64,000 bases of DNA, taken from IMG/VR virus record IMGVR_UViG_3300014204_007611; one strand, given 5' to 3'. The first letter of the stretch is position 1. Each line of letters opens with the position of its first letter. Below the pieces are notes generated by a model that was given only the letters and a program-made list of their open reading frames with translations, was not told the DNA's origin and ran no database searches. Positions 1,900-39,354 of this stretch are shown here, in pieces. The translations under genes and the position numbers were made by a program. Source of the stretch: a virus.

Positions 1900-3402
1900 C
1901 TACTTCTTGGGTTCGGCTTGCTGGCTGCTCATCATATATTCATATCTTAATAAAGAAATATTCCATTTCTTCAATGCTGGAAGCAGCATGTCATATCCCC
2001 TATTGATGCGAGCTATGTAGTTCTCAGTATCTTTGTTGTCGGGCCAGTATTTCCCCTTATTATATTGCGGAACAAGAGTAGTATGGCTGCGACCATCTGG
2101 CGCAAGTCTCGCATCACACCCGAATAAAGTAATAGACTTCGCACCAAGGAACGCAGCGATGTGGATAGCAGTATGAACGGTTGAAGCGTGATGAAAGAAT
2201 GGCTGATCCTTATTATTCAAACAAGAATCGCTGTCTTGCGGACCCAAATCATAAGTAATGCAATCTGAAAACTTCTCTGGCGGTTCAATCGACGTTCTAC
2301 CAGCACCAGTTTTCAATTTCTTTGGGATAAGTAATTGATTTGGCAAATAACGCTTAGCGTCTATGACGGATTCTGCCGGTTTTAAGTCGTGGAATACAAC
2401 ATAATCGCAATCAAACACCAAAGCATTCCAATTAACACCTATCACCACATCAAAATCGTCGAGAATTCCCTTTGTAACGAGATCGAGAGATGGACCAGCA
2501 CCGAGGACAGCAATACGAGAATTAGCGTGACGATTCTTAAGCATCTCAATCCGCGAAAGATCTGGCAAAAAATTATCAAGAAACCATTGAAATGGTCTTT
2601 TTTGAATGCGATCTCGTATAGCTATGCGCTCAGACAAATCACCGAATTTGATATCTCCTGGTTTTTTACGTATAGCTTGGTAGAAGAATTTTTTGTAATC
2701 TCCGAACCACACTTCTGCTATTCGCGCTTTGTTCTGCTCTAATGTCGTAGTATCAAGATCATAATTGAACTTATTCTTGAACCAATGTGCAACTACAGAG
2801 TCACGAATGATTTCGACAGAGCCGCCAGCCATCCAAGTTCGCAATGAAAACTCGATATTTTCACAGCCCCACTTATACATCCCGGTGTCGAAGCCGCCGA
2901 TCTCTTCCCACCATTGTTTTGTAAAAGCGAAGCAATGACCAGCCAAACAGGGCGTCATATCACTACCATCATCGTTAATCCAGTTGAAGTCGAGATTCCA
3001 TCGCCAGCCGGTCTTGGCATAGGCCGCAGTCGTCTCCATCCAAGTCGGAGCATCAAGACCTCTAGTTAGCGGTACACCGACACAATTATATCTCTCTGTC
3101 AATCTGGTGACAATTGGTAATAGCCAATTGGGTGCAACTTTTACGTGTGCGTCTATCGACACAATAACTGGCGATTTGGCGGCAGCAGCAGCGAGGTTGC
3201 GTGATCTCTGTAGACCCTCACGCATTTGGTTCCGAATGATTCTCACATTCGGCCTGTCTATTGCAATTGGAATTTTACTGCAATCATCAACGACAATGAA
3301 TTCGTCGATCAAGCCAGGCATAGTGTTGGCTATGATTGTGTCGATTGTTTTTTCGGTGTATTCTTCATTTAACACCGACATTATAATTGTTGCAGTTGGC
3401 AT
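1900..3402 (-). CDS. Bifunctional glycosyltransferase: N-terminal GT2 (GT-A, DxD) domain plus C-terminal DUF115/Maf-like domain
   Basis: N-terminus SVLNEEY...EFIVVDDCS is GT2-like. The C-terminus IAVLGAGPSLD...VIGVNWN is a DUF115/MptE-like GxGPS motif. Confidence 0.6.
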   Translation of the reverse strand: MPTATIIMSVLNEEYTEKTIDTIIANTMPGLIDEFIVVDDCSKIPIAIDRPNVRIIRNQMREGLQRSRNLAAAAAKSPVIVSIDAHVKVAPNWLLPIVTRLTERYNCVGVPLTRGLDAPTWMETTAAYAKTGWRWNLDFNWINDDGSDMTPCLAGHCFAFTKQWWEEIGGFDTGMYKWGCENIEFSLRTWMAGGSVEIIRDSVVAHWFKNKFNYDLDTTTLEQNKARIAEVWFGDYKKFFYQAIRKKPGDIKFGDLSERIAIRDRIQKRPFQWFLDNFLPDLSRIEMLKNRHANSRIAVLGAGPSLDLVTKGILDDFDVVIGVNWNALVFDCDYVVFHDLKPAESVIDAKRYLPNQLLIPKKLKTGAGRTSIEPPEKFSDCITYDLGPQDSDSCLNNKDQPFFHHASTVHTAIHIAAFLGAKSITLFGCDARLAPDGRSHTTLVPQYNKGKYWPDNKDTENYIARINRGYDMLLPALKKWNISLLRYEYMMSSQQAEPKK

Positions 3403-3410
3403 ATTAGTCC

Positions 3411-4046
3411 TTATATATCAAGAGTGGTCTCACCGACGATTTGAAACTGAACTCCGCGTTTTCTGATTTCGCTAATTACGGCATTCATTACTGCTCGTTG
3501 GCTGGCAGAAATGCTACCGGGCCTAGGAGTATGATAAAAATAGTGCCTACCGACACTATTAAATCCGCAGCCGTACAATACTATCTTGGTTGCACCCATA
3601 AGATAAGCAAGCTGAACCGCACAACAACTGATAGTACCGCCAAACATCAAATAATTCATATCTGACTTTAGTCTATCGGATTTATACCATCGATACATAA
3701 ACGTCAGATGCGGCTCTACGGGTGGTGGTAGTTTTACACTGCTTTGCTTTGCAGTAATAACAGCCGTGCGTTTGATGTCTTGGAATAGGTCGATTGGATA
3801 TAAGATCTTATCAGGAGCGGCAGTCAATTTAGCAATAACTCTAACTCTAGAGCAGTCAATGTTGAACCAATCGAACGCCGACGACCTAGCATCACCACAC
3901 ATGAAATAATCAAATCTCTTACCAAGCTTGGCAGCACCATTCACACCTATAGAAAGGTGTTGATTTTTAAATTCGATCGCTGTTGGTCCTGAACCAACAA
4001 CAGCTATTGTCTCACCTTTATGGATACCATGTAGCGCTTTAATCAT
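3411..4046 (-). CDS. DUF115/Maf-like putative glycosyltransferase
   Basis: IAVVGSGPTAIEF...SIGVNGAA...FMCGDARS; paralogous to the C-terminal domain of the upstream gene. Confidence 0.45.
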   Translation of the reverse strand: MIKALHGIHKGETIAVVGSGPTAIEFKNQHLSIGVNGAAKLGKRFDYFMCGDARSSAFDWFNIDCSRVRVIAKLTAAPDKILYPIDLFQDIKRTAVITAKQSSVKLPPPVEPHLTFMYRWYKSDRLKSDMNYLMFGGTISCCAVQLAYLMGATKIVLYGCGFNSVGRHYFYHTPRPGSISASQRAVMNAVISEIRKRGVQFQIVGETTLDI

Positions 4047-5905
4047 TATTTTCGTTTTAAAGAAGAAAAAACTTCACTTGTCTCTGTATCCCATTCTCCA
4101 ATATTGCAGAACGATTCCGGCCATAGTACTTTGCCGTCTCTTTCGTCAGGACCTTCATCTAAAAAGCAACCACACACAGCACATCGATTAGCGGTACGTT
4201 GTGTGCATAAAGCACATTTATCTAATCTGGCTTCAATTGTCTCAATTCTGGCTGTTTTGGCTCCAGACAATTTGTGTTTCGCTAATGCCTTTGCATAATT
4301 CCAAATCATCCTAGGCATCGCCGGTAGCTTCTTTTTATCGGCTGGATCACGACTTAATAAAGTATAACCATAATCATCATTTTGATGTTCAACGACTGAC
4401 CATTCAGGATTCTCACGCATCCATTTGCGCATCGCAATAAATAAGCCAGGACCGGAAGGTTCGCCCACTTCGCCATATGCACCAGTTGAACGCAACAGAA
4501 TCCAACGACGTGCTCTCTTGCCGAATTTAGACAATTCAGCGTATAGCCTATCAGCCTGATGTATAGAATGGATGACCAATAAATCAGTTTCATCTATGTC
4601 GGCTAGCATCATCCAATCGACCGCATAATTCGAATAACTCGTACTGCCAGCAATTTCTAATAACTGCTGATGGACTGGCGACGGCTCTGATGTATAGACA
4701 CGCAGCACTTTGGGATGCCCGGCCAACAAAGTGACATCAAACTCTTTCTGTTTGACTAATGCCGTTACATGACTACACTTCGAAGCTAAATCGCGGAAAC
4801 GCGGCATATACTTGCCCATGTTATGTGGGTGCGATTCAGTCCAAGCGAACGCCTCCTCGATTGTATTGCCTATGCGTTGACATCCAGAGCATGGTGCAAA
4901 GATGTGTCCAATGGGGTCTTCAAGAAGATAGTTCCACGCTTTTACGTCGATAGGCTTATCGGTGCCGACAAAATGGTCTTTTATTCCATCTAACGGTAGC
5001 TGCAGCTCTTGATGCCCAATTACATAGTTTCTTATTCTATCCCAATAACTTAATGGATAAGATGCTCCTCTAGGCCGCAGAAATCTGTGTGTCCATCTAA
5101 GAAATGGCAAGTTCAAGCATTTCTTACCTGCTTGTCGATACTTAATGTGAATATAGCCTTCTTCACCACCAAATCCGCGAAACGTTGGATTGAATTTAAG
5201 CCACGCATCTTTTCGGCACGTGAAAAGCCCCATCCCATTTGCTGGTATTTCGAACGGTTGGTCGTAATCGCTAGAGCCAATCGTTTTACATCCAGCGTTA
5301 TAAAATTCTGTTTCGTGGCCGTAGTATGGAATCTTCGGATATTGCAACCCACAGTCCGGGCATCGCTGGTAGGTTTTGTCAAAATCCATTAAATCGTGTG
5401 CTGTGGTATCTTCAGCCGATATCGGTATCGAGAAGTGCCACCCACATTTACAGGACCACGCGCGGCTCCAAATACCCCACATAGCACCTCGCCATGTCAA
5501 ATCGAAATGAGTCGAAATATCATGCAGGTCGTTATAAACAAGCGGGCCAGTGAGCAAATCATTATTATCTGGATTATGCTCATACCAATTTATCAGGCGT
5601 TTGATGGCACCTGGGGCGAGCATGATATGACAATCCATGCAAAGAACGAGTTCAGTTTGTGCTTCGTCGAAAACACGGCCTTTCGCATTTGCAGCGCCAA
5701 CAACATCTTCGTAAGCGATATAGCGAGCTGGCGTTTCTGCAATAAAGGAAGCGACAGCTTTACCATCTGGAGTATTTGGTGAATTATCGACGACTAGAAG
5801 CTCGACATCGCTTAAATCGTGATACATCCTCAACGCTTGGATGGAGAAATAAACCCCATCAAAGTCATTGTAATGGGCCATCCCAATCGTTAGTCTCTTG
5901 ACCAT
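4046..5905 (-). CDS. Glycosyltransferase family 2-like protein with a C-terminal Cys-rich extension
   Basis: LTIGMAHYNDFDGVYFSIQALRMY...VELLVVDNSP is a GT-A fold with a DxD-like VVDNS motif. It overlaps 3411..4046 by an ATGA junction. Confidence 0.55.
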   Translation of the reverse strand: MVKRLTIGMAHYNDFDGVYFSIQALRMYHDLSDVELLVVDNSPNTPDGKAVASFIAETPARYIAYEDVVGAANAKGRVFDEAQTELVLCMDCHIMLAPGAIKRLINWYEHNPDNNDLLTGPLVYNDLHDISTHFDLTWRGAMWGIWSRAWSCKCGWHFSIPISAEDTTAHDLMDFDKTYQRCPDCGLQYPKIPYYGHETEFYNAGCKTIGSSDYDQPFEIPANGMGLFTCRKDAWLKFNPTFRGFGGEEGYIHIKYRQAGKKCLNLPFLRWTHRFLRPRGASYPLSYWDRIRNYVIGHQELQLPLDGIKDHFVGTDKPIDVKAWNYLLEDPIGHIFAPCSGCQRIGNTIEEAFAWTESHPHNMGKYMPRFRDLASKCSHVTALVKQKEFDVTLLAGHPKVLRVYTSEPSPVHQQLLEIAGSTSYSNYAVDWMMLADIDETDLLVIHSIHQADRLYAELSKFGKRARRWILLRSTGAYGEVGEPSGPGLFIAMRKWMRENPEWSVVEHQNDDYGYTLLSRDPADKKKLPAMPRMIWNYAKALAKHKLSGAKTARIETIEARLDKCALCTQRTANRCAVCGCFLDEGPDERDGKVLWPESFCNIGEWDTETSEVFSSLKRK

Positions 5906-5929: not shown

Positions 5930-6667
5930 CTATGTACGCTTAGATACGATCGTAGTTGGGATGAACTCGACCTTCTCAGCAACTCTTAAACGGCGATCCT
6001 CAAAAAATGCCCCAATACGTTCTGTGTAAATAATCGTGTCGCCAAGAATTGTACACTTATAGGCCGGTAAATCATCACATATTACCAATAGCTGCTCGCC
6101 TGTGTCGATGTCGTATAAGAGTGCAAACAACTCTTCGTTATCGTATCGTTGCCCAGATACAATTAGCTTATTTGGCTGCTCAGCACAGTAAGATAAGCTA
6201 TAAACCATTACGTTTGGCATTTCTATAATATCGTCTTTAATAGCTGTTCTTATATGAATTACAGCAGGATTCTCCTTGCTAGGCTCAACAAACACAGTTC
6301 TATCTCTTTGAATAAATCCAGCCGGGGTATCTAATATCGCAACCGGAGCAGATAGGCTCGTAATGTCGGGGCCATCCATTCGGTATAATCTGTAACGAGT
6401 GAAATCGGCACCACCAGCGATGAATGATATATGTAAACCAAACTCGTCTTGCCAAGCACTCGGAGAGCATTCGAGCTTCTGAGTGAATCCAGTTTCCAGG
6501 CGAGTTGATTCTATCCCCTTAACATAATAGATATGCCACGGATCACATCTACAGAATAATAAGATCCTGTCGTCTACTACAGGTACCAAAAATGGCATAT
6601 GCGATCTACCATCAGGCACTCCATTAGGAACTATGACGGCCATACTATCGAACCTCCCTGGTCGCAA
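5930..6667 (-). CDS. Hypothetical protein
   Basis: 245-aa ORF, same strand, immediately downstream of the fibre paralogs. Confidence 0.4.
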   Translation of the reverse strand: MRPGRFDSMAVIVPNGVPDGRSHMPFLVPVVDDRILLFCRCDPWHIYYVKGIESTRLETGFTQKLECSPSAWQDEFGLHISFIAGGADFTRYRLYRMDGPDITSLSAPVAILDTPAGFIQRDRTVFVEPSKENPAVIHIRTAIKDDIIEMPNVMVYSLSYCAEQPNKLIVSGQRYDNEELFALLYDIDTGEQLLVICDDLPAYKCTILGDTIIYTERIGAFFEDRRLRVAEKVEFIPTTIVSKRT

Positions 6668-9222
6668 CCAATCTGCAATGACATAAACCCGTCATAGTTA
6701 TATATTGATGACTGGGTAAATGAATCTGGCAAACCAACCAAATAACCATTGGTAACAGCGCCGTTGCTATATTGTATGTGGTAAGCTGTCTCGATTATAC
6801 GCCAGTAGCCGGTTGCTGGTCCTATTTGTCCTTGATATGGCGTCAGATCCCATGTTCTGTGTGTGGGATTAACAACATAAGTTGCTACTACACGCGGTGT
6901 ACAAGTCGGAGAAGGCGTTGTAGTCGGTTGAGTTGTTGTTGGCGCGTGTGTTGTTGGTGGTGTTTGTGTCGTTGGTGGTGTTTGTGTTGTTGGAGCCGGT
7001 GTTGTACCCGGCTTGCATCTCGTGTAGGCGTAGGCCCCACCACCAGGTATTGGTTCCCTAGGAGTACTACTAGTAGGTTCGGAGCACGAACATCCTGGAG
7101 TGCAAGGATTGGTAACTCTAGACCAAGTGCCACCGCCTGGAGACATATACCATTTGCATTGCCCCGGACAAATAACAGGTGTCGGACCTTGAGTTGTAGG
7201 CCCTTGTGTCGTCGGCGGATGATGAGTTGTCGGTCGTGGTGTCGTCGGCGGATACCACGTTGTTGGTGGCCAGAACGTAGTTGTTGGCGCGGGCGTTGTT
7301 GTTGGAAATGGTGGAAGCGTTGTTGTCGTCGTCGGCTGTGGTCCGATGGTTGGTGCTACTGTTGTAGTCGGGGCAACTGTAGTTGTTGGTCGTGTAGAAG
7401 AGCCAATAGCGCAAGCTAATATTGAATACCCAAGACAACACACAACACCTTCGAGGTTAATATCAATCCCAAATTCAAGTGCTACGTTGCTTGGACCGGT
7501 ATATGTAAATGTTATCGGAGAGCCAATTGTCGAATATTGTTTTCCGCCAGTTATCGCAGAATTATTAGTGCATGCCGCTGACCAAGAAACTGGACATGTG
7601 GTGTCGTCTGGATAATTTGGGCAAGATTCGCTACTAATATATCTCGCTTCATCGCATATTGTGTTAAACTTACTACTAAACGTCATGTTAGCAGTAATAG
7701 AACCGCTATCTGTCCATGGTACATGGACAGTTACATCATAATGCTGTAGTGTGCCATCTATGACACAATCGAAGCCTTGACATGTCGGGTCGTCGGATGA
7801 GTTGGTGTTATAATTTACAGGTAGATTGATGTCTAAATATGTATCTAAATAACTCGGACAATCGCATGGGCAACATATTTCAACTGGTTCCGGCTTAATT
7901 GGTTCAACAACCAAAACAGGACAGCCGCCAGCAACATCATTAACATTAGAACAGAAAAAGAAGTCTTCTTGACAGCATCGCTGTCCAGGGAATTGCGGTT
8001 CAACAATTGCCCATGGATATCGTGAATCACGATTAGTTCCAGAATTTGCCTGTCGCCAAGCAACAATCGACGCCGGTGTAAAATCTTTCCACTTAAATTG
8101 ATTCGACTGGTGTTGTGTCCAGCAAGCCTCAATTGGCGTCCATTCAACAAATTGCAATGTTGGTATATCTATCTGTTTCTCTGCGAACTTGAATCGCGTT
8201 ATAGTCTTACAATCATCGATTGTTGATTTTACCGCTGCCAGTGATAAATCTGCGACAGTGTTCAACGGTGTTGTACTGGTAGTAGTGCAACTATGTAATA
8301 CTGCAAGCTTCGACACACAGTTGTTTGGGAATAGCTTGTCGGAAAAGAAATAGATGTCCGACATCAAGCTATTTGATCTCAACGAAATAACTGCAGTTGT
8401 TGCTTCTACAGTCTCATCTATAAAGCTATTTTCTACGACATCAATAAATCCGCCGCCATCCTTACCGTTTTGTCCCTTGTGGCCTATTTCATTCGCTTTG
8501 TAGTGCCAGGTGTTTCCAGCCCACGAATTTGATATTAATCTTCCAGATATATTAGAAGAAACGATATCGTAATTAAGAAACGAGCCGTCTTCAAGTTCTA
8601 CTTCTGAATAGATAATAGCATAAGGGTCGCCGTTTATCGGTTGCCAAATCGTCAATGAACTCTTATTAGAGCTGTTTTTGAATAGCCTTAAAGAAATAGG
8701 AGTGTCGATAGTCGACGCAGCGGTTGCATTGATTACAAGCGCCGTCCCGTCCAATGTCGCGGCGTGTTTTGTTTCTGATTTGCCGGGAGTACCATCAGGC
8801 CCAGTATTGCCACGTTCGCCAACAAGCCCATCTTTACCAGGGCATTTCAATTGTGATAGCAGTGCCAACAATCTAGAACGGTTGACCTCAATTCGCAAAT
8901 CGTTATTAGATTCCGGCGAAAACGAAACCGTGTGGTTTGACGATTGAAATAAATAATAATAACCAGTTAAATGTGGATAGATTTTCAGAAAGTTAAAACT
9001 CAAGCCATCTTTAGTGGCTTGAGATATCGCGTTAATGCGAGTAAAAATTGTAGGCGACACCAGGCCATCACTGGTTTCCGTTACGACAGAAGCGGCTGCA
9101 AACGTCCCAATACAAGACCAAGTGTTCAGCTTGCTGCTATATTGCCACCGGTCGCCGCTACTGTCAAGGACAATAGTGCCATCCGCTACGTTCGTTCCAT
9201 TACTCAACGCGTGGCAATTCAA
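6631..9222 (-). CDS. Fibre-like structural glycoprotein candidate, with a collagen-like G-X-Y segment and a Pro/Thr-rich mucin-like linker (paralog B)
   Basis: 863 aa. The N-terminal ~140 aa is about 70% identical to the adjacent paralog, with a short collagen-like run GLVGERGNTGPDGTPG and a conserved CCQEDFFFCSNVNDV block. The long TTPAPTT/PTTQGPTT repeat lies near the C-terminus. Confidence 0.6.
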   Translation of the reverse strand: MNCHALSNGTNVADGTIVLDSSGDRWQYSSKLNTWSCIGTFAAASVVTETSDGLVSPTIFTRINAISQATKDGLSFNFLKIYPHLTGYYYLFQSSNHTVSFSPESNNDLRIEVNRSRLLALLSQLKCPGKDGLVGERGNTGPDGTPGKSETKHAATLDGTALVINATAASTIDTPISLRLFKNSSNKSSLTIWQPINGDPYAIIYSEVELEDGSFLNYDIVSSNISGRLISNSWAGNTWHYKANEIGHKGQNGKDGGGFIDVVENSFIDETVEATTAVISLRSNSLMSDIYFFSDKLFPNNCVSKLAVLHSCTTTSTTPLNTVADLSLAAVKSTIDDCKTITRFKFAEKQIDIPTLQFVEWTPIEACWTQHQSNQFKWKDFTPASIVAWRQANSGTNRDSRYPWAIVEPQFPGQRCCQEDFFFCSNVNDVAGGCPVLVVEPIKPEPVEICCPCDCPSYLDTYLDINLPVNYNTNSSDDPTCQGFDCVIDGTLQHYDVTVHVPWTDSGSITANMTFSSKFNTICDEARYISSESCPNYPDDTTCPVSWSAACTNNSAITGGKQYSTIGSPITFTYTGPSNVALEFGIDINLEGVVCCLGYSILACAIGSSTRPTTTVAPTTTVAPTIGPQPTTTTTLPPFPTTTPAPTTTFWPPTTWYPPTTPRPTTHHPPTTQGPTTQGPTPVICPGQCKWYMSPGGGTWSRVTNPCTPGCSCSEPTSSTPREPIPGGGAYAYTRCKPGTTPAPTTQTPPTTQTPPTTHAPTTTQPTTTPSPTCTPRVVATYVVNPTHRTWDLTPYQGQIGPATGYWRIIETAYHIQYSNGAVTNGYLVGLPDSFTQSSIYNYDGFMSLQIGCDQGGSIVWPS
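6890..7400. repeat. Degenerate tandem repeats encoding the Pro/Thr linker of the second fibre paralog
   Basis: Repeated GTTGTTGG(T/C)G(G/C) units; they generate shadow ORFs on both strands. Confidence 0.55.
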
Positions 9223-9233
9223 CGCTCATCTCC

Positions 9234-11813
9234 TTAAAGATATTCATGAACCACCGGGTATCCGGCACCCGATTCTGGATAATATGTGCCTGGATTTGTT
9301 ATGCTGTATCCAGCAGTCGGTTGCTTCCATGCGCTAGATCCCAATGACGCACCAATGCTATAATATCCACTAGTGCTACACCAAATGGTATAAGAGCCAT
9401 CAGTTCTAACAGCATACACTCTGCCATTATAATCGCCAGCTGCTAGATAATCGCCAGTACAATCCGGCTGCACAGAGCTGCCTCCTGTAACATAATAATC
9501 CGGTGCAGTTGGCGATGGCGACAGTGAATGTGATGGCGACAGTGAATGTGATGGCGACAGTGAATGTGATGGCGAATGCGATGGTGACAGCAGCGATGGT
9601 GATGGCGATGGCGAATCTGACGGTGAAGCCGAAAGTGGCGACAAAGAAATCGATAACAATGACGGAGATATCGACAATGGCGATTGCGATGGCGTAGGAG
9701 ATATTGATGGTGATGGCGACGGCGAATTACTCAAACTCAACGATGCCGATGGCGACAATGATTCAGATGGAGACGGTGAAGGCGACAATGATTCAGATGG
9801 AGATGGTGATACCGATACCGATGGTGATGGTGACAATGAAACCGATGGCGACAAACTGATCGATGGCGACAATGAAGTCGAAGTTGATAATGATGGTGAT
9901 GGCGAAGGCGATACACTTAGCATGATTTCAGCGGCACTAGTCTCACCAGCAGCAGATACTGGGTCAAGTGCGCTAACTGATACTGTTATCCTGTATCCTA
10001 AACAGCAGTTCAATCTTAATGTATTGATCTCTGCATTAGTGACTATCGTCCCAGACGTACCACTAAAATAAAAAGTGATAATTCCAATATTTGTCAAAGG
10101 CTGACGGCTATCGCCAGATTGGCGTGATATCGTGGTCGTCGCAACCGTTTTATCAGTAACCGCCCATCCTATAGGACAACTTGACTGGCTTACCGCAACA
10201 CGCGGGTCGAATGTAAATCCAGGTATCGTACTTTCTTGAGATTGGTATATCTCTCGCGCATCGTCACATATCGAATCGTATTCCAATCTCCAAGTGACTT
10301 CCACCACTATTGGTGATGTTGTTGATATATTGACAGTTGCATTATATTCATGCAGTCCGCCATTTATACTACAAACAGCAACCTGTGAAGATGTATTGCC
10401 GATAGCCGTTAAATTGACATCCTCAAACTCATATCCACCCTCTAATAAAAATGATATCGGGCAGTCGCAGTTGCAACCATAAGTCGAGCCAGCTGGAGTC
10501 TGGATACTATCAACAATTCCAATCGGGCAAGCTCCGGTTACATCATTAACATTAGAACAGAAAAAGAAATCTTCTTGGCAGCATAGTTGGCCTGGGTCCG
10601 CCTCTTCAACTATCGACCATGGATAGCCTGGGTTAGATGCCATGCTCTCGTTGGCTTTTTGCCAAGGCATCATCCCAGAATCAACCTTTGTGTAATCTGG
10701 CCACATCAACCTAGAAGCAGCAAGATGTCTTTGTCGCAAACACGTGCCAGTAGGAGTCCAATCGCTAAACACCAATTTCGGAATTTCAGCTACAACAGGG
10801 TTTATATTGTACCTAGTTATGCTTTTACAACTATCGGTTGAAACCTGTAATGCGGCATATGTGTCGGTTATCGATGTCGTTGTAGTAGCACAAATATGGC
10901 TAACAGCCAGTTTTGATACACAATTTGTTTTGAATAGCTCTGACGATAAATAATTTATCGAATTCAAGCCGTCACCTTGACGCATCAAGATTATAGCTGC
11001 GTTCGACATTAAATTACTATCATTTACAGCATCTGACACGACACTTATGAAGCCGTGCCCGTCTTCACCAACAGGGCCTCTCTTACCCATTTGTAAAGCT
11101 TTATAGTGCCATGTCAGCGTACTCCATTGTTGGCTGGCTATCTGCCCAGATAAACGTCCATCAGCATATTCCAAAAATGTCGAGGCAGTATCAATTATTA
11201 TCGAAGACGACACTACCTCGAATTCAGATCCGACAATTTTTATTACGACTGAAGGAGTAGAAGAATAACTAGAAAACAATCTTAAAGATATTGGCGTGCC
11301 GAGTGAATCATCAACAGCTACATCAATCGACATTCTTGAATCGGATATAGAAGCTGGATACTTCTTTTCCGATTCACCAGGAGAGCCATGTGTCCCTGTA
11401 TCTCCTTGCTCACCGATAAGCCCCTGCTCGCCTGGACATCTAAGTTGTGATAGTAGTGCAAGTAATCGCGGCCTATTGACCTCAATCCTTAAATCATTGA
11501 TCGATTCTGGCTCAAATGTCAGAGTGTGATTTGAGGACTGGAATAAATAATAATAGCCAGATAAGTGAGGGTATATCTTTAGGAAATCGAATGTCAGACC
11601 GTTTTTAATCGCTGACGATATCGCATTTATACGAGTGAAGATGGACGGAGAAACCAATCCGTCTTTAGTGTCGGTAACGACTGGCGAGTCATCGATGGTT
11701 CCGATATTCATCCAGGAATTCAACTGGATGTTATATCTCCAAATTGATCCATAGACATCACAGACCTCCATACCATCTGTCGGCGTTTTCGGTAGGCGTG
11801 TGATGTTTGACAT
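9234..11813 (-). CDS. Fibre-like structural glycoprotein candidate, with a collagen-like segment and a Ser/Pro-rich linker (paralog A)
   Basis: 859 aa. The N-terminus and central Cys-rich blocks are shared with 6631..9222 (GEQGLIGEQGDTGTHGSPG; CCQEDFFFCSNVNDV). The linker is SPSPSxSLSPS repeats, encoded by the tandem DNA repeats around 9490-9960. Confidence 0.6.
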   Translation of the reverse strand: MSNITRLPKTPTDGMEVCDVYGSIWRYNIQLNSWMNIGTIDDSPVVTDTKDGLVSPSIFTRINAISSAIKNGLTFDFLKIYPHLSGYYYLFQSSNHTLTFEPESINDLRIEVNRPRLLALLSQLRCPGEQGLIGEQGDTGTHGSPGESEKKYPASISDSRMSIDVAVDDSLGTPISLRLFSSYSSTPSVVIKIVGSEFEVVSSSIIIDTASTFLEYADGRLSGQIASQQWSTLTWHYKALQMGKRGPVGEDGHGFISVVSDAVNDSNLMSNAAIILMRQGDGLNSINYLSSELFKTNCVSKLAVSHICATTTTSITDTYAALQVSTDSCKSITRYNINPVVAEIPKLVFSDWTPTGTCLRQRHLAASRLMWPDYTKVDSGMMPWQKANESMASNPGYPWSIVEEADPGQLCCQEDFFFCSNVNDVTGACPIGIVDSIQTPAGSTYGCNCDCPISFLLEGGYEFEDVNLTAIGNTSSQVAVCSINGGLHEYNATVNISTTSPIVVEVTWRLEYDSICDDAREIYQSQESTIPGFTFDPRVAVSQSSCPIGWAVTDKTVATTTISRQSGDSRQPLTNIGIITFYFSGTSGTIVTNAEINTLRLNCCLGYRITVSVSALDPVSAAGETSAAEIMLSVSPSPSPSLSTSTSLSPSISLSPSVSLSPSPSVSVSPSPSESLSPSPSPSESLSPSASLSLSNSPSPSPSISPTPSQSPLSISPSLLSISLSPLSASPSDSPSPSPSLLSPSHSPSHSLSPSHSLSPSHSLSPSPTAPDYYVTGGSSVQPDCTGDYLAAGDYNGRVYAVRTDGSYTIWCSTSGYYSIGASLGSSAWKQPTAGYSITNPGTYYPESGAGYPVVHEYL
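9490..9960. repeat. Tandem nucleotide repeats encoding the Ser/Pro linker of the fibre paralog
   Basis: GTGAATGTGATGGCGACA repeats three times, followed by multiple GATGGCGA(C/T)(A/G) variants. Confidence 0.6.
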
Positions 11814-11818: not shown

Positions 11819-12064
11819 TTAATCATCCGACGATATCGCGTCCAATAACTCGCTAGGATCATAGTCGACCAGAGGGACTACTTTGTCGGTGCCTTCTTCA
11901 TGTTCGACCTCTGCGGCGCAATGAACACACAAGACCGTATCGGGAACGGCCTTCAATCGCTCCTTTGGTATTTTTCGCCCGCACTGTTCGCAGACCACAG
12001 CATCTTCAATCTTAGCCTTTCCAAGTTTGTTATTTTTCATACTACCTCCATGGTGTGAATACAT
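11819..12064 (-). CDS. DksA/TraR-family C4 zinc-finger protein
   Basis: CEQCGRKIPKERLKAVPDTVLCVHC is the classic DksA/TraR CxxC-x17-CxxC finger. Confidence 0.55.
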   Translation of the reverse strand: MYSHHGGSMKNNKLGKAKIEDAVVCEQCGRKIPKERLKAVPDTVLCVHCAAEVEHEEGTDKVVPLVDYDPSELLDAISSDD

Positions 12065-12093
12065 TACTTACGAAGTCATTCAAAACTAAATAC

Positions 12094-12717
12094 ATGGGTA
12101 CCTGCAATATCAAGTTTGAACAGAAATTATCATCCGCTCTATTACTATGTGAATCTATATCAGGTAGGGATATAATTTCTGCTATAAATAAACAACGCCA
12201 ATCCAAACGTCTGAATCCTGTCAACCACAATAGCAAGATAGATATCGCTGCCAAGATACAAGCCAAACAAATGGCTATGACAGGGCAATTCAAACACACC
12301 TTACATGGCGTTAAATATCCAAACCTTGATGATAGAATGCGGGCTTCTGGTTACGCCTATTACAAAGCAGGAGAGGTGCTATTCACAGGAAACGAAGGTC
12401 CAGATGCAATAGTTAATCTGTGGATGGGATCAAAGCCGCACAAAGAAGCGATATTGCATCCAGATGTCAAAGAAATAGGTATATCTATAGAATATTCTCC
12501 TAGCCGCGAGCCATATGTCTGCGCAGTATTATGTGCTCCGTTTGGAGAAAGCCAAGAGATGGCGGCAGAAATTGCTAATAAAATCGTCAGTATAGCTAAA
12601 GAGCAGGGTACTATCGCAGCAAAAAGAATACTCAACGATATAGCACAATCTAAGGCAATGCAATGGGTGATTAGATCACCACAAGTACAAAGAGTTATTG
12701 CTGCTCTGAGGCGATAA
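12094..12717 (+). CDS. CAP/SCP (YkwD-like) domain protein, likely secreted or lipoprotein
   Basis: NLWMGSKPHKEAILHPDVKEIGIS matches the CAP signature WMNSxGHRxNIL...IG, and GYAYYKAGE matches the YkwD GYSY..GEN block. ATG at 12094; the track's 12055 GTG start overlaps the upstream divergent gene. Confidence 0.5.
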   Translation: MGTCNIKFEQKLSSALLLCESISGRDIISAINKQRQSKRLNPVNHNSKIDIAAKIQAKQMAMTGQFKHTLHGVKYPNLDDRMRASGYAYYKAGEVLFTGNEGPDAIVNLWMGSKPHKEAILHPDVKEIGISIEYSPSREPYVCAVLCAPFGESQEMAAEIANKIVSIAKEQGTIAAKRILNDIAQSKAMQWVIRSPQVQRVIAALRR

Positions 12718-13555: not shown

Positions 13556-13563
13556 ATTCTACC

Positions 13564-27455: not shown

Positions 27456-29095
27456 AAGACTTAACAAAACAGGTCACTGCATTCGTTATTAGTTCCGGGA
27501 CGAACCCTAACTTTCAGCTATGCTTGGATGCATTAAAGACACAGACTGTTAAGGTGACTGTCGATATTGTTAAAGATTATAGTCCAATGTCTGTCGCTTT
27601 TCAACAGATGCTAGTACGGTGCAAGACACCATACTATGTCGAAGTTGATGAAGACATGATACTAAACCCAGATTCCATCGAGAAGATGTACGATGCAATT
27701 AAATCAGAGCAAGATCCTAAGTGCTCGATGATTGCTTATAGATTGCTTGATGTTCATATCGACTTCGTGATTTACGGTATCAAGATATACAAGTTCGATA
27801 TATTCAAAAAATATCCGTACGATCTCAGCCATATGTCGTGTGAGGTAGAACAGCTTGAAAGAATGAAAGCTGATGGTTATACTTACAAACTCAACGAGGA
27901 TGTTGTAGGGAAACATTCACCGTTATGGAATAATGAACTCATATTTGAGAGATATTTGAACTTGATGGAGAAGTTCAAGGAGTTTGGTTATGTTTGGCTT
28001 GAGAGTCTACCAAAGAAATTATTCGAGATTTTCAAGAAGGAACCGACAGAAGTCAACTTGTTCGCATTACTCGGCGCTTACACTAGTGTTGTTAGCGACA
28101 CTAGACTGCAGCTTGGAGAAAAGAATTTCACCGCAAAACGCCCGGAATACCACAGAATGCAGAGTTTTTTGGAACAGCCGACATCGGCGACTCTCTACGT
28201 TACGAACAAATGCAATCTTAAATGTAACTTCTGTTGGCGGCAGCATAAAGAGTTAGAAGATTTCCCAGATATGACGGCTGGCGTTATTGATGACCTGTTA
28301 TTTAGGTTCCCATCTATCCAGTCATTATGTGTTTGCGGGTTTGGAGAGCCGTTTTTATGTGAAAATTTCATATCGATAATGCAGTATATCAAGGCACCAA
28401 CATCAACTTTCCATTCATATGGTAAGAATTTATTTGTTGGGTTAATTACAAATGGGACGCTTGCAGCTGAACGGCTACCCTGGCTACGAGATGCTGGATG
28501 TTTACCTGATTATTTATCTGTGAGTCTTAATGCGTCAAACGCCGCCGAATACAAACGGACCACTGGCTATGATCTTTTTGAGCAGGCGCTGGCTGGTGTT
28601 CGTACTAGTGTCAGTTTAGGTGTTCAGACTTATCTGTCGCGTGTATGCGATAAAAACAATTTGTCAGATATAGCAGAATTTCTCGCATTAGCTAAGTCAT
28701 TGGGTGTTCAAGGCGTTCATCTACATAATATACTTCCACACTTCGATGATAATGAGAACAAACAGTTCTGGGATCTCGTCTTAACAAAAAATGATCAAGT
28801 CTTAATCGATGCAATTAAGACTTTACCAGACGCCGATATTGTCCTGCGATATCCAGTACTTATAGCCAAAGATGAAGTTAGAAGAAATTGTTTGTTCCCG
28901 TGGAAGACGATCGGTATTAACGGGAACAGATCAATTACGATTTGCAACAGTGTGTCACCACCAAGGAAAGAAAACGGCACAATTACCGATAGCATCATCT
29001 GGCAAAGCGAATATTGTCAGAAGTTTCGTGAAATGAAAGCAGGCGAACAGTGCGAAGCCTGTAAAAAATGCTTCCGCAATTGGCAGTACGACTAA
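27452..29095 (+). CDS. Fusion protein: N-terminal glycosyltransferase-like domain plus C-terminal radical SAM domain with a SPASM-like Cys cluster
   Basis: YVTNKCNLKCNFCW is the CX3CX2C radical-SAM motif. The C-terminal CNSVSPP...CEACKKCF cluster is SPASM-like. Confidence 0.55.
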   Translation: MKDLTKQVTAFVISSGTNPNFQLCLDALKTQTVKVTVDIVKDYSPMSVAFQQMLVRCKTPYYVEVDEDMILNPDSIEKMYDAIKSEQDPKCSMIAYRLLDVHIDFVIYGIKIYKFDIFKKYPYDLSHMSCEVEQLERMKADGYTYKLNEDVVGKHSPLWNNELIFERYLNLMEKFKEFGYVWLESLPKKLFEIFKKEPTEVNLFALLGAYTSVVSDTRLQLGEKNFTAKRPEYHRMQSFLEQPTSATLYVTNKCNLKCNFCWRQHKELEDFPDMTAGVIDDLLFRFPSIQSLCVCGFGEPFLCENFISIMQYIKAPTSTFHSYGKNLFVGLITNGTLAAERLPWLRDAGCLPDYLSVSLNASNAAEYKRTTGYDLFEQALAGVRTSVSLGVQTYLSRVCDKNNLSDIAEFLALAKSLGVQGVHLHNILPHFDDNENKQFWDLVLTKNDQVLIDAIKTLPDADIVLRYPVLIAKDEVRRNCLFPWKTIGINGNRSITICNSVSPPRKENGTITDSIIWQSEYCQKFREMKAGEQCEACKKCFRNWQYD

Positions 29096-29098
29096 ATT

Positions 29099-29764
29099 AT
29101 GACAGAGAAGTTCCAACCATTGGTTATAGTTGACGGCAAACAAAAATGGGCTCACGTCTCAATTCCGAAATGTGCATGTAGCTCTATTAGACGTGCTCTG
29201 GAGAAGCATTTTAAGTTAAAACCAGTTGAAAAATATGAGATGGTCCATAGCCGGAAATGGCCGCATGTAGAATCGATGAATTGGATTTCTGAGCTTGATG
29301 ACGACTGGTATACATGGGCTATTGTCCGCAATCCTTTTGATCGGCTTGTATCAGTTTGGCAAGAAAAATGCTGTACATCGGCGGCGAGACCAAATCTTGG
29401 ACCACAGCTGCAACGTTTAGTTGGCCAGCCTTTTGATGTATTTTGCAGGACGGTGTGTGCTATTATACAAGAACCACCAGAAGCAGATATACATCTTGGT
29501 TGGTATGTCCGAGGGATTGATACACATATAGCACCGATGTCGCATTTTCTACTTCATGATGGAAAATGCGTAGCCAAAGTCATACGAGAGATGCATGAGG
29601 TAGACTCTTTTTGGTCAGGTCTACAAAAACGGTTTGGTTTTCCGGACTTAGGACATCTCAATATTAGCGTCCATAAACCGCCAGATTGTTATTATACACC
29701 AGAGCTACGACGCCTCGTTGAAGATGCTTACAGTGATGATTTACGCCTCTGGTGGAGTAAATGA
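29099..29764 (+). CDS. Sulfotransferase (Sulfotransfer_2/carbohydrate sulfotransferase-like)
   Basis: IPKCACSSIRRAL resembles the 5'-PSB loop PKxGxT, and IVRNPFDRLVS resembles the 3'-PB motif RDPxxR..S. Confidence 0.5.
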   Translation: MTEKFQPLVIVDGKQKWAHVSIPKCACSSIRRALEKHFKLKPVEKYEMVHSRKWPHVESMNWISELDDDWYTWAIVRNPFDRLVSVWQEKCCTSAARPNLGPQLQRLVGQPFDVFCRTVCAIIQEPPEADIHLGWYVRGIDTHIAPMSHFLLHDGKCVAKVIREMHEVDSFWSGLQKRFGFPDLGHLNISVHKPPDCYYTPELRRLVEDAYSDDLRLWWSK

Positions 29765-30792
29765 TGCAGTATAAAGTTGTCAATCTTGGAGACGATCCGT
29801 GGAGCAGAGACCTTAAATATGAGTTAGTTAATTTACCACATTACAAAACAGCCAAACAGTGGATGCGAAATATCGACATCCCAATGGTTGAAACAGAATA
29901 TTTTCAATGGCTAGAATCACAATTAGTGGAAAACGGCAGCGTATGGAATGGACTATTAAGTAATAGAAAAGACATCATCAGACAATATCACAATTTTAAA
30001 CATCTATTCGAAATAGCTCCAAATTTCGTAGAAGAACAGCCAACAACACAAAAAATCGATGGTGTGTCTTACTATTATGGTCCAATTTGCGTGAAGATCA
30101 GAGGCAGTGGAGAAATCAGGATTTGGGATGGTATGCACAGGACATCGATCTTGCTTGCCACCAACCATCCAATTCGATTTACTATTTGTGAGCGTGAAGA
30201 TGGATGGCTTAACTTATTGAATAGCTTGAAAACATTATATCCAACGATGATGTATCAAGCTATCCCACATCCAGACTTCGCAGATTGGGCGTGCTGCGAT
30301 TATAGTATAAAAGAGCAGCAAATATCTAATGTCGTAATGGATAACGGCATCAAATCAATACTTGACCTTGGAAGCTGCCACGGTCATGTGCTTTATAGTT
30401 TAAGGGGTATCCTGCAGTCAGCCACAGGTGTCGAATACGATCCAGTTAGATATCGCGTCTTGAAGTTGTTATTCGACAAGCTAGGGTTTGAATCATATAA
30501 CGCTAACATTTTTGATGTCGTAAACAAAACAACTAAGCACTTCGACTGTGTTTTCGCGTTGGCGGTGTTCCATCATTTTACTAGAGAAAACACTATCGAA
30601 AAATTCAATACCCTATTAGATCGAATCAGCAGCATATCAGATATGCTGCTCTACGAATTACCGGAACCGGGCGAAGAGCAGCATGCGTGGATGTACCACG
30701 ACATAGATATGCATGCGATCATTCAGTCAAGATATAGAAACAGCACAGTCATACCGATACAAAATAGGAAGATGTTGTTGCTGCAGAATTAA
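29761..30792 (+). CDS. Class I SAM-dependent methyltransferase
   Basis: ILDLGSCHGHVLYSL is MTase motif I; VFALAVFHH is a motif II-like block. Confidence 0.5.
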   Translation: MMQYKVVNLGDDPWSRDLKYELVNLPHYKTAKQWMRNIDIPMVETEYFQWLESQLVENGSVWNGLLSNRKDIIRQYHNFKHLFEIAPNFVEEQPTTQKIDGVSYYYGPICVKIRGSGEIRIWDGMHRTSILLATNHPIRFTICEREDGWLNLLNSLKTLYPTMMYQAIPHPDFADWACCDYSIKEQQISNVVMDNGIKSILDLGSCHGHVLYSLRGILQSATGVEYDPVRYRVLKLLFDKLGFESYNANIFDVVNKTTKHFDCVFALAVFHHFTRENTIEKFNTLLDRISSISDMLLYELPEPGEEQHAWMYHDIDMHAIIQSRYRNSTVIPIQNRKMLLLQN

Positions 30793-34606: not shown

Positions 34607-35791
34607 ATGGATAGCTCAGATGGCCAATCGGCGTTGGTCGCCGAGCCGCCGAGTTCTAAAACACAAAATTTTCGCGAGCGTTATTTTCCAGATATAACCG
34701 ACGAGGATTGGGACGACTGGCGATGGCAGTTAAATAACAGGTATACGACTAAAGAACAGCTAGAATCCGTCATCGACCTCAGCAGCAAAGAGAGCATGGC
34801 AATGGTGAAACTCCATTGCCTCGGAAGATTAGCAATCAACATAACGCCATATTACCTCAGTCTAATCTCACCGACCGATCCGAACCATCCACTTCGACGA
34901 ACTGTTATCCCGACTTTAGACGAATTCTATACGTCAGTCGAAGAGGCAACCGACCCTCTAGCTGAAGACAAAGACACCCCAGTTCCGAAGCTTGTGCACC
35001 GATATAAGGATAGAGCACTCCTTTTAGTAGCTGGACAATGTGCTAGCTACTGCCGATATTGTACGAGATCAAGACTAGTTTGCGTCCAAAACGCAAAACC
35101 GGCTACGCAGCCGCAACTAAATGCCGCAATTGCGTATATCAGACAAAATACCAATATCAGAGATGTCATTGTATCTGGCGGCGACCCGCTATTGTTTGCA
35201 GATGGAGACTCAATTAGAGGCGGCAAACTCGATTCGATTTTATATGAATTGCGGCATATCAAACATGTAGAAATCATCAGAATCGGCACCAAAGTACCGG
35301 TAGTGTTGCCACAACGAATCACACTGAAGTTATGTAAGACACTGAAGAAATATCACCCATTATTTATGAGCGTCCATTTTACACACCCAGATGAACTGAC
35401 ACCGGAATGTGTAAAAGCTTGTACGATGTTGGCTGATGCAGGAATTCCGTTGGGATCACAGACGGTATTACTATCTGGCATTAATGATAATATCGAAACG
35501 ATGAAATCATTAATGCATAAACTGTTGATGGCGCGTGTCAGACCATATTACCTCTACCAGTGCGACCCGGTTGTAGGAACCGCCCACTTCAGAACTCCTA
35601 TCTCAAAAGGTATAGAAATTATCGAAGGTCTGCGAGGACATACCTCGGGATACGCAATTCCAACATTTGTAGTCGACGGACCGGGCGGTCGCGGAAAGAT
35701 ACCATTGCAACCAAATTATGTGATAGGCCAAGATGAGAATGGCACTACTCTCCGCAACTTCTGCGGAGAGATCTGTCATTATCCTGGATAA
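34607..35791 (+). CDS. KamA-family radical SAM aminomutase (lysine 2,3-aminomutase/EpmB-like)
   Basis: CASYCRYCTRS is the KamA CxxxCxxC motif, in the KamA-family context ITPYYLSLISP. The gene has a TAGGAG ribosome-binding site. Confidence 0.7.
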   Translation: MDSSDGQSALVAEPPSSKTQNFRERYFPDITDEDWDDWRWQLNNRYTTKEQLESVIDLSSKESMAMVKLHCLGRLAINITPYYLSLISPTDPNHPLRRTVIPTLDEFYTSVEEATDPLAEDKDTPVPKLVHRYKDRALLLVAGQCASYCRYCTRSRLVCVQNAKPATQPQLNAAIAYIRQNTNIRDVIVSGGDPLLFADGDSIRGGKLDSILYELRHIKHVEIIRIGTKVPVVLPQRITLKLCKTLKKYHPLFMSVHFTHPDELTPECVKACTMLADAGIPLGSQTVLLSGINDNIETMKSLMHKLLMARVRPYYLYQCDPVVGTAHFRTPISKGIEIIEGLRGHTSGYAIPTFVVDGPGGRGKIPLQPNYVIGQDENGTTLRNFCGEICHYPG

Positions 35792-37726: not shown

Positions 37727-38371
37727 ATGGCGAAATACTGCGACACACAAATACTAGAACGAAATTGGTTCGAATGGCTCGTTTCTAGTAATACCCCAAG
37801 CATTGAACAACTGCGCGTCAAAGGTGTGCTTTGGACTCTCATAATAGGTATGCTACCGGATAGTGAAATACAGGACCCTTGTTGTGAAACGCGACTGCAT
37901 TATATCATTCCTGGGAACATCCATTTTTGTACTATGGGCGATAAGATTACTTGGATGTTGCCAAGTAATCTTACCATAGAGCAAGCAAAAGAACAAGGAT
38001 ATTATTGCGAACAGTCGACGACCGCAAGTTGGCAAGCCATGCTGCAGGACATCGCGAAGATGTGCCAAGGCGTAGCTAGCAAATTCAACCAGCAATCTGC
38101 AGAAGAGACAAACAACCTTGCCAGCGATGCACTCGTTCAAGTCATTAGCAAAATTGCTCGTGGCAAGCTCAAGTACACTCCGGGAAGGGCTCCCGTTTTC
38201 AATCTGTTGACTACAACAATCCATCGTTGTATCTATAGTATTCTCAGTAAGGACACTAGGCAGAGAAAGAATTTCACTGCCTTTGCCGATAACCTCGTGA
38301 TTGAAGATACCGGCGCGGTGCGAGCCTATAGTAGAACACGCCTTGGCTCTCGTGTCAAGATCGATCGCTAA
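37727..38371 (+). CDS. Late-transcription sigma factor, T4 gp55-like
   Basis: The central block ALVQVISKIARGKLKYTPGRAPVFNLLTTTIHRCIYSILSKDTRQRKN aligns by pattern with the T4 gp55 core ([37 protein letters not shown]); this similarity is from memory and was not searched. Confidence 0.45.
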   Translation: MAKYCDTQILERNWFEWLVSSNTPSIEQLRVKGVLWTLIIGMLPDSEIQDPCCETRLHYIIPGNIHFCTMGDKITWMLPSNLTIEQAKEQGYYCEQSTTASWQAMLQDIAKMCQGVASKFNQQSAEETNNLASDALVQVISKIARGKLKYTPGRAPVFNLLTTTIHRCIYSILSKDTRQRKNFTAFADNLVIEDTGAVRAYSRTRLGSRVKIDR

Positions 38372-38406
38372 AATTCTTTTCGGTCGTTGTCGGAAAATAT
38401 TATCTT

Positions 38407-39354
38407 ATGATTTTAAATTTAAGAGTCCGACCGATTAGCAATAACGTCAAGCGTGAAATTGTGCTTCCCAAGGCCGCTAGGCCAGTCATGCGACCGCAGC
38501 AATCTGTGACGAAGGCATTGCGGGCTGTTATGAGGCCGCAGCCAATTGCAGTAGCACAGCCAATTCAACAGCCAAATCGACGGCCGCCTGTAATGCCTAA
38601 GAGGGGTGTGGCAGCAAAACAAGCGCCAGGGAAAGTCAATAAGCCGACAACTAAGGTCATCACACGTGACCCGCCTGAGGCGAGCACCAGAAAATTACGC
38701 GAGCTACACAATTCATGCATAGGACGAGTGCTGGCGATTATCGCCAATGGTCCTAGTGTGCTAGAAGTCGACACAACAAGATTGCTCCTAAATCCACGTG
38801 TTGATATTATGTCGATAAACAAGCCAGACACACGCATCTGGCCAACCAAGTATTGGCTATTCTGTGATATTTCGCAATTAAAGCGACATAATGATTTATG
38901 GTCGAGATATAATGGACTCATATTCAACTCGACGATGATTCAAGAGGTACGACCAGGCACAATATTTATCAAGAATATTCCTGGCTTTGGATTTAGCACC
39001 GATTTGGCGAGCGGTTTTCACATTGGGAGATCGAGTGTTTATGCAGCTATGCAGGTAGCGTTATGGCTTGGATATGATAAGATATATATTTTCGGTATTG
39101 ATATGGGGGCGGTGACAGTCGATGGTAAGGAGATGTTGCATTTCTATGGAGTCAACCAAGATTGCACACCTGACAGCCGAAAAAAGAGATTCACTGAAGA
39201 AGCGAAATATTATGATGATGCGAGTAGATCACTACCGCCAGAAACAAGAAAGAAATTCTACTTCTGTAGCTCATATAACAAATTCGATTTCGTAAACAGA
39301 TTCAACAAATTAGACCATCACGAAGCCATAGATATAGTTTGCAATGATGTGTAG
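38407..39354 (+). CDS. DUF115/Maf-like putative glycosyltransferase with a Pro-rich repeated N-terminus
   Basis: LAIIANGPSVLEV...IMSINKPD...IFGIDMG. The N-terminus has RPVMRPQ / RAVMRPQ repeats. Confidence 0.5.
   Translation: MILNLRVRPISNNVKREIVLPKAARPVMRPQQSVTKALRAVMRPQPIAVAQPIQQPNRRPPVMPKRGVAAKQAPGKVNKPTTKVITRDPPEASTRKLRELHNSCIGRVLAIIANGPSVLEVDTTRLLLNPRVDIMSINKPDTRIWPTKYWLFCDISQLKRHNDLWSRYNGLIFNSTMIQEVRPGTIFIKNIPGFGFSTDLASGFHIGRSSVYAAMQVALWLGYDKIYIFGIDMGAVTVDGKEMLHFYGVNQDCTPDSRKKRFTEEAKYYDDASRSLPPETRKKFYFCSSYNKFDFVNRFNKLDHHEAIDIVCNDV

Follow-up and report, generated by a model that had tools for sequence, protein, structure and literature searches.

Glycosylation of the virion has been shown experimentally only in a few phages and giant viruses. 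Phage glycosyltransferases (GTs) place O-glycans on the capsid and tail tube of mycobacteriophages (Freeman et al. 2023, PMC10527164), and among the giant viruses the fibrils of the Megavirinae are glycosylated (PMC10117803). The locus described here lies in IMG/VR virus record IMGVR_UViG_3300014204_007611, a 64,000-nucleotide stretch of DNA that we refer to as the window, and centres on three proteins with an MptE-like domain (PF01973, also DUF115 or Maf_flag10), called A (500 aa), B (211 aa) and C (315 aa). It resembles the described systems in that viral GTs are proposed to glycosylate structural proteins of the virus itself, and in having clusters of several GT and methyltransferase genes. 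It differs in its enzyme families, as no GT27 or MptE-like enzyme appears in the literature searched on those systems, in its candidate acceptors, which are long mucin-like repeats, and in belonging to a phage lineage known from sequence alone. An earlier reading of this DNA (the original prediction) took the three proteins for Maf-like transferases that place nonulosonic-acid-like sugars on Ser/Thr-rich fibre proteins, and their open reading frames (ORFs) are exactly where it had located them (Table 1).

In Maf (structure 5MU5) the PF01973 domain is the central part of a protein of about 600 aa, between an N-terminal Rossmann-like domain and a C-terminal helical bundle (PMC11339370). The donor sugars of Maf are pseudaminic acid (Pse) and legionaminic acid (Leg), and CbMaf also accepts the cytidine monophosphate (CMP) derivatives of N-acetylneuraminic acid, CMP-Neu5Ac, and of 3-deoxy-D-manno-octulosonate, CMP-Kdo (PMC11339370). 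The namesake of the family, MptE (8SD5), is a 6-hydroxymethyl-7,8-dihydropterin pyrophosphokinase; the phage domains differ from it in having glycosyltransferases and glycoprotein-like genes as fusion partners and neighbours, and no pterin or folate pathway gene is found in the window or its flanks. Sialic acid is the donor sugar of CstII, which like CstI belongs to GT42, and Kdo that of the Kdo III transferase WaaZ. These CMP-ulosonic-acid-dependent enzymes are of the same fold class as the phage domains, but their acceptors are lipooligosaccharide (LOS) and lipopolysaccharide (LPS), not proteins. The characterised enzymes nearest this fold (Maf, CstII and WaaZ) mostly use CMP-activated ulosonic acids. 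The second enzyme family concerned, GT27, comprises the initiators of mucin-type glycosylation in animals and protists, and the animal enzymes carry a ricin-type lectin domain after the catalytic domain (PMC4202792).

The original prediction held that Maf-like transferases had not been described in phages, and we too found no such paper. More broadly, the full-text literature searched holds no description of DUF115/Maf-type or GT27 enzymes in phages, which is not proof of absence. The claim of novelty does not extend to the fold itself, for uncharacterised phage proteins that have it are already present in databases: PHROG 2111 and PHROG 4603 (annotated 'alpha-2,3-sialyltransferase'), and 14 models in BFVD that match at E below 1e-3, one of which is named MptE-like. 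What is known is therefore the fold and the concept of virion glycosylation; new are the fusion of a GT27 with an MptE-like domain, the association of this fusion with mucin-like fibre genes and the phage setting. The observation itself is real, and the locus is probably a new form of virion glycosylation.

Protein A and the mucin-like genes

We propose that the genes for two large fibre-like proteins (fibS and fibT), a 619-aa GT2 protein, B and A form a module that O-glycosylates the phage's own fibres, and give this reading a probability of roughly 0.45. The GT27 domain of A would transfer an N-acetylhexosamine (HexNAc), probably N-acetylgalactosamine (GalNAc), from a uridine diphosphate (UDP) sugar onto Ser/Thr residues of the fibS and fibT repeats. 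The MptE-like domain fused to it, together with B, would add a CMP-activated acidic sugar, probably of the Kdo or nonulosonic type, for which the HexNAc or Ser/Thr itself would be the point of attachment; the 619-aa GT2 protein may extend the glycan further, and the donor sugars would be drawn from the host. Both the order of these steps and the identity of the sugars are putative.

That the MptE-like domain of A is fused behind a GT-A domain, as first predicted, is borne out. The label GT2 given to that N-terminal domain agrees with the Pfam matches (GT2/Glyco_transf_7C), although the domain is more specifically a GT27-type polypeptide GalNAc-transferase (ppGalNAc-T) catalytic domain, which it resembles in both sequence and fold (E 7e-46 against human GalNAc-T2). 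The DxH motif is present as D84-A-H86, the Gal/GalNAc-T motif as W178GCENIE184 and the downstream His within AH206WFK; all three Mn2+ ligands are intact, as is the Gal/GalNAc-T motif. The phage protein differs from the animal and protist enzymes in being phage-encoded, in having no signal anchor or Golgi context and in having no ricin-type lectin domain, the position of which is taken by the MptE-like domain, with G301, H414, C429, H440 and Y447 as invariant residues. Two distant A homologues, P0059 and P0060, retain the ricin domain (PF00652). The presence of the GT27 domain suggests that a HexNAc is what initiates the glycan on Ser/Thr, and that the MptE-like domains would extend the glycan rather than attach a sugar directly to the protein. 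It is only homology and the adjacent mucin-like genes that point to UDP-GalNAc as the donor and a peptide Ser/Thr as the acceptor of A.

The genes of the operon overlap or are closely spaced on the minus strand, in the order fibS, fibT, a 237-aa ORF, the 619-aa GT2 protein, B, A, a 106-aa protein and a Volactin protein; the stop codon of the 619-aa GT2 gene, which only some relatives have, overlaps the start of B. The N-terminal halves of fibS and fibT are conserved, Cys-rich and contain Gly-X-Y triplets, and towards the C-terminus both consist of repeats of extreme low complexity. No other ORF in the window is mucin-like, and fibS has the window's highest Ser plus Thr content (S+T), up to 0.57 per 30 aa. 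The Ser-rich array also varies in copy number between assemblies: contig ERZ27247350:k141_1430509 in ENA (104,990 bp) has the sequence of the window except for a single 18-bp indel, one extra repeat unit in the window, which lies at the HSLSPS repeat of fibS. We found no informative Pfam, PHROG, NCBIfam or PDB match for fibS and fibT beyond low-complexity noise, nor for the 619-aa protein beyond its N-terminal GT2 domain, and it is for want of a family match that fibS and fibT are fibres by inference. The position of A and B directly downstream of mucin-like fibre genes, in a conserved order, supports Ser/Thr-rich fibre proteins as their targets. This part of the original prediction is likely to hold for A and B, and does not carry over to C, which is not linked to fibre genes.

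The MptE-like domains

The proposed 'GxGPS...VN' signature is exact in A only (GAGPS...GVN); in B it reads GSGPT...GVN, and in C NGPS...SIN. Hidden Markov model (HMM) searches with PF01973, which has a gathering cut-off of 34.6 bits, gave 26.8 bits for A (E 5e-6; 28.5 bits for its isolated C-terminal domain), 25.9 bits for B (E 1e-5) and 16.0 bits for C (E 0.011). All three domains are thus below the gathering score, but their E-values, which span 1.5e-6 to 0.011, are significant or marginal, and no other family competes: within Pfam, PF01973 is the sole family match for B and C and the sole match other than GT2 for A. Among homologues, 15 of 19 isolated family-A C-terminal domains match PF01973 and nothing else relevant, as do 34 of 38 family-C members, one of which also matches an unrelated transposase family. 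A family-B profile searched against 1.84 billion representatives found 350 proteins. The multi-domain proteins among them exceed the cut-off, at 45-56 bits on PF01973, and include fusions to GT2 or methyltransferase domains, so that MptE-like/GT2 fusions are also seen outside this phage.

The three domains are also related to one another. Comparison of alignments of metagenomic homologues with hhalign gave a probability of 97% (E 6e-11) for B against the C-terminus of A, 95% (E 5e-8) for C against the C-terminus of A and 68% (E 5e-5) for B against C. AlphaFold2 (AF2) models, with predicted local distance difference test (pLDDT) scores of 92.6 and 83.7 (B was not among the modelled proteins), have a three-dimensional fold in common with Maf 5MU5 and MptE 8SD5. 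Sequence-profile searches of the PDB were uninformative, with spurious ankyrin matches only for the C-terminal profile of A and a single, non-significant match for B, to MptE (E 0.85), so the link to solved structures rests on the fold. From the profile comparisons the homology of the three domains to the PF01973 superfamily is judged to be beyond chance, and the original assignment to the DUF115/MptE-like fold and superfamily is confirmed by Pfam, hhalign, transitivity and fold. HMM scans of all ORFs found exactly three copies in the window. They had been placed in one phage region, which is true of A and B, which are adjacent; C is 35 kb distant from them and belongs to another conserved block of genes. 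Clustered at 90% identity, family C has at least 275 clusters, family A has 64 and family B has 27.

Conservation among related loci

Judged from its gene content and relatives, the window is part of the genome of an uncultivated huge phage. A T4-type head maturation protease is encoded (PF03420; phrog_207, E 1e-43), the relatives of the window are viral contigs in IMG/VR that reach 388 kb, among them IMGVR_UViG_3300029288_000054 (388 kb) and 3300037067_012889 (364 kb), and in the stretches covered Pfam annotates no ribosomal or other cellular housekeeping genes. No cultured relative exists that could serve as a source of annotation. Against 50,697 GenBank phages, megablast with both regions returned no match, and tblastn returned nothing for B and C and a weak GT2 match only for A; homologues of B, C or the A fusion were found in none of these phages.

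We compared 15 distinct related loci. In 14 of them (all but L019) an HMM of the fibre N-terminal half identified fibre-type genes, one or two per locus, immediately upstream of the A homologue, and the order CAP - zf-DksA - fibS - fibT - (GT2) - B - A - Volactin - DnaE recurs. In the 11 loci of subgroup 1, A is at least 54% identical, B is present and the GT27 metal ligands are intact; in the four loci of subgroup 2 (L008, L020, L021 and L022), A is about 30% identical, B is absent and the DxH motif and third His are lost. The three GT27 motifs D84-A-H86, AH206WFK and W178GCENIE184 are conserved in the 11 and lost in the four distant homologues. The fibre repeats follow the same division: their maximum S+T per 50 aa is 0.38-0.70 in subgroup 1 (apart from L007, at 0.26, and L019, where no fibre gene was found) and 0.34 or less in subgroup 2. 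Across related loci the repeats attain an S+T of 0.44-0.70 per 50 aa, where the background has a median of 0.20 and peaks at 0.46. An intact GT27 site, B and mucin-like repeats therefore occur together and are all absent from subgroup 2, which ties GT27 activity and B to the repeats.

The MptE-like motifs are kept in both subgroups. The GxGPS loop, H414, C429-D430, S439-H440 and Y447 are conserved, the exceptions being single substitutions in individual distant loci, and on this pattern the domain is under strong constraint of its own. As its His, Cys, Asp and Tyr residues are invariant even where the GT27 site has decayed, catalysis fits better than a scaffold role. The A homologues of subgroup 2, which are still flanked by a fibre gene and the Volactin gene, may consist of a pseudo-GT27 domain that serves as a scaffold and a second domain that is active.

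Donor sugar

The use of a CMP-sugar by the MptE-like domain has independent support from two unrelated IMG/VR phage contigs, L038 and L039. In these a small MptE-like ORF (40.8 bits on PF01973 in L038 and 23.7 bits in L039) adjoins a gene for a fused HMGL-like/CTP_transf_3 cytidylyltransferase and a GT2 gene, in what looks like a cassette that makes and transfers a CMP-sugar. CMP-Kdo is universal in diderm bacteria. Host CMP-Kdo is at least as plausible a donor for the phage enzymes as a nonulosonic acid, and is our most economical guess.

Several points weigh against the fibre module. The identity of fibS and fibT as virion fibres, and so as acceptors, is inferred only from their Gly-X-Y triplets, size and synteny. 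Every Pfam score of a window protein is under the curated PF01973 cut-off, and pyrophosphokinases (MptE and TPK) share the fold. The co-variation of GT27 site, B and repeats amounts to two clades and may reflect a single evolutionary event, and in subgroup 2 the MptE-like domain adjoins a fibre gene without mucin-like repeats, so the domain may act on some other acceptor. That the host supplies CMP-Kdo or CMP-nonulosonate is an assumption, made because the examined phage DNA encodes no such pathway. The nonulosonic-acid donor of the original prediction was not supported by a search for pse, leg and neu genes in about 80 kb of the 105-kb contig: no neu, pse, leg, kds or CMP-sugar synthetase gene, and none of the NeuB, CTP_transf_3, Epimerase_2, DegT or KdsA type, is annotated in contig positions 2979-83107 or was found in window-wide scans, the remaining 22 kb or so of the contig and most of a genome of possibly about 388 kb lying outside this search. 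With no donor gene in the examined DNA, a nonulosonic-acid donor is unproven. A KdsB-seeded scan of IMG/VR gave 35 phage contigs, none of this clade, which is weak negative evidence because such a scan detects close relatives only.

If the module does act as proposed, GT27 polypeptide GalNAc-transferases and enzymes of the Maf/sialyltransferase fold would join the phage repertoire in an undescribed architecture, and, encoded beside their probable mucin-like fibre substrate, would make a compact and cloneable system. This would bear on the origin of mucin-type O-glycosylation enzymes and on the shielding and targeting of fibres in huge phages, for example in protection from proteases, in adhesion to mucus or biofilm, or in receptor mimicry. 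A soluble GalNAc-transferase from a bacterial context, fused to a second transferase, could also serve glyco-engineering.

Protein C and alternative readings

A bolder form of the proposal, which we consider somewhat unlikely, is a self-contained mucin-type system in which a bifunctional A, with B, would build an acid-capped, sialyl-Tn-like glycan (ulosonic acid-HexNAc-Ser/Thr) on the phage fibres. The GT11, GT25-like, sulfotransferase and methyltransferase genes of the window might elaborate this glycan further, and the virion would then have a 'mucin' coat made by enzymes thought typical of eukaryotes.

Protein C is a core gene of a large clade of uncultivated phages. It is conserved throughout the clade within a DNA-metabolism block that is the same in distant relatives (an SbcC-like ATPase, an oppositely oriented gene for 440 aa, another gene for about 215-260 aa, C itself, several small ORFs, then a PurZ-like gene and AP endonuclease 2), and this separate location places it outside the fibre module. 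Its only named match in NCBIfam is WaaZ (E 3.7e-5), over about 56 columns and at 23 bits against a cut-off of 200, and hhalign against Escherichia coli WaaZ gives 78% (E 1.8e-5). Profile matches of C to CstII (E 1e-3) and WaaZ (E 2e-5 to 4e-5) are weak and cover the GNGPS loop and a core helix-strand; B also matches WaaZ weakly (E 1.6e-3), with 'GPT...VNG(A/S)A' motif forms common to both. Across these enzymes the similarity spans only 20-56 columns, far under the family cut-offs. Most likely C is also a CMP-sugar transferase that acts on an acceptor other than the fibres; candidates are a protein, host LPS and something associated with DNA.

The WaaZ matches open a reading, in our view an unlikely one, in which the transferases, C especially, remodel the inner core of host LPS, the LOS or the capsule, for example for superinfection exclusion or to keep progeny from adsorbing to cell debris. 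C would then act like WaaZ, adding a Kdo-type sugar, and its basic N-terminus could bind membranes. The window does hold HtrL/YibB-like, GT25-like and GT11 genes that are typical of LPS/LOS loci, and GT clusters of jumbo phages have been proposed as capsule modifiers (PMC7824862). The shortness and low score of the WaaZ match count against this, as does the presence of C among genes of DNA metabolism rather than of the envelope; A and B, for their part, are tightly linked to mucin-like proteins and a protein-type GalNAc-transferase.

Less probable again is that the MptE-like domains are not GTs but nucleotide-binding or pyrophosphokinase modules like MptE and TPK, with a nucleotide or DNA role for C and a scaffold role in A, where the domain would stand in for the lectin domain without catalytic activity of its own and position GT27 on its substrate. 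The sole PDB profile match of B to MptE, non-significant as it is, points this way, as do the SbcC-like, PurZ-like, AP endonuclease and helicase genes around C and the fact that phage GTs are known to hypermodify DNA. However, the context contains no pterin or thiamine pathway, the domain is fused to GT2 or GT27 both here and elsewhere, other phages link it to a CMP-sugar synthetase gene, and its residues show strict conservation among divergent A homologues, those with decayed GT27 sites included. Glycosylation of DNA as the role of C was rejected, as only the gene neighbourhood speaks for it and the DNA-glycosylation papers searched do not mention the fold.

Equally improbable is the original reading that all three domains are Maf-type and attach a nonulosonic acid (pseudaminic, legionaminic or other) directly to the Ser/Thr residues of fibre linkers: the phage domains, of about 210 aa, align with only 203-206 of the 632 residues of Maf and lack its N-terminal Rossmann-like and C-terminal helical parts, the partner in A being GT27, B being a bare domain and C having only a disordered basic N-terminus; there is no flagellin gene, and no gene for nonulosonic-acid biosynthesis or CMP activation, in the roughly 80 kb covered; the intact ppGalNAc-T domain fused in A already serves attachment to Ser/Thr, and C is unlinked to fibre genes. 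Orthology with Maf is therefore rejected on architecture and context, with Pfam scores under the cut-off as a further difference.

Table 1. Features of the window and a comparable cassette in two other phage contigs. TRF, Tandem Repeats Finder.
Feature	Position	Strand	Evidence or character
Protein A, 500 aa	1900..3402	-	
A, N-terminal domain, aa 1-282	2557..3402	-	GT27-type polypeptide GalNAc-transferase catalytic domain
A, C-terminal domain, aa 283-490	1933..2556	-	MptE-like/Maf-fold, in position of ricin lectin
Protein B, 211 aa	3411..4046	-	stand-alone MptE-like/DUF115 domain; motifs GSGPT, GVNGAA, CAVQLAYLMG..LYGC, HYFY
fibS, fibre-like, 859 aa	9234..11813	-	translation; conserved N-terminal half
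fibS Ser-rich repeats SPSxS/SLSPS, aa 617-782, ~165 residues	9468..9965	-	repeat analysis
fibS 18-bp tandem repeat encoding HSLSPS	9514..9587	-	TRF, 3.4 perfect copies
fibT, fibre-like fibS paralogue, 863 aa	6631..9222	-	translation, repeat analysis, TRF
fibT PTTT-type Thr/Pro-rich mucin-like blocks, aa 603-677 and 733-791	7192..7416 and 6850..7026	-	
237-aa protein	5930..6643	-	called gene; no family match
619-aa protein, N-terminal GT2, Cys-rich C-terminus	4046..5905	-	PF00535 E 1.4e-9
106-aa protein, hydrophobic N-terminal stretch, between A and actin-like gene	1574..1894	-	translation, called gene
Actin-fold protein	430..1584 (ORF to 1797)	-	Volactin PF25216 E 5e-42; weak MamK match
Protein C, 315 aa	38407..39354	+	
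C, N-terminal ~89 aa	38407..38673	+	disordered, AF2 pLDDT ~50; Pro-rich, strongly basic (19 K+R, 2 D+E)
C, MptE-like/Maf-fold domain	38674..39354	+	motifs NGPS, SINKPD, GRSS, FGxDM, HFYG
PurZ-like adenylosuccinate synthetase	42097..43380	+	phrog_1211 E 1e-46; NCBIfam PurZ 177 bits, cut-off 300
AP_endonuc_2 protein	43335..44186	+	directly after PurZ-like gene
CMP-sugar-type cassette	L038 (3300025138_011172) 2038..5863; L039 (3300031974_002523) 1340..3717		L038 adds GT2 + PIG-L deacetylase

Other genes of the window and its relatives

The two remaining genes at the downstream end of the fibre operon encode the 106-aa protein, the N-terminus of which probably spans a membrane, and the Volactin protein, which may be a phage cytoskeletal element. 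The Volactin gene is syntenic with the A gene and a gene for a DnaE-type DNA polymerase III (Pol III) alpha subunit in all relatives examined. Upstream of the window (L001, 13627..19957) this Pol III alpha is split over two genes, one of which has a faint LAGLIDADG match, and the split recurs in the relatives L007 and L008. Next to C, the pair of PurZ-like and AP_endonuc_2 genes is conserved beside family C in distant relatives, so the phage may have a 2-aminoadenine (Z) genome.

Further genes of the glycan type are spread over the window. A second cluster at 26466..30792 (+) contains a GT1 gene (329 aa), a 547-aa radical S-adenosylmethionine (SAM) protein, a Sulfotransfer_2 sulfotransferase and a Methyltransf_11 protein, a content that suggests sulfated and methylated sugars. 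Three genes at 49066..51084 (-) encode an FkbM-type methyltransferase, a GT11 protein (fucosyltransferase family) and a protein with a weak GT25 match, and 17347..22029 (-) holds a GT1 and Methyltransf_23 fusion (576 aa), a GT2/HtrL_YibB-like protein (532 aa) and a Methyltransf_24 protein. In L007, Gmd/Fcl-like epimerase/dehydratase genes (12993..14902) adjoin the A homologue, a hint of fucose.

Some of the remaining genes are unusual cargo for a phage. These are a CsrA homologue at 48318..48503 (+), two CAP-domain proteins of the cysteine-rich secretory protein family at 12055..12717 (+) and 24290..24766 (-), and a lysine-2,3-aminomutase-like radical SAM enzyme at 34607..35791 (+).

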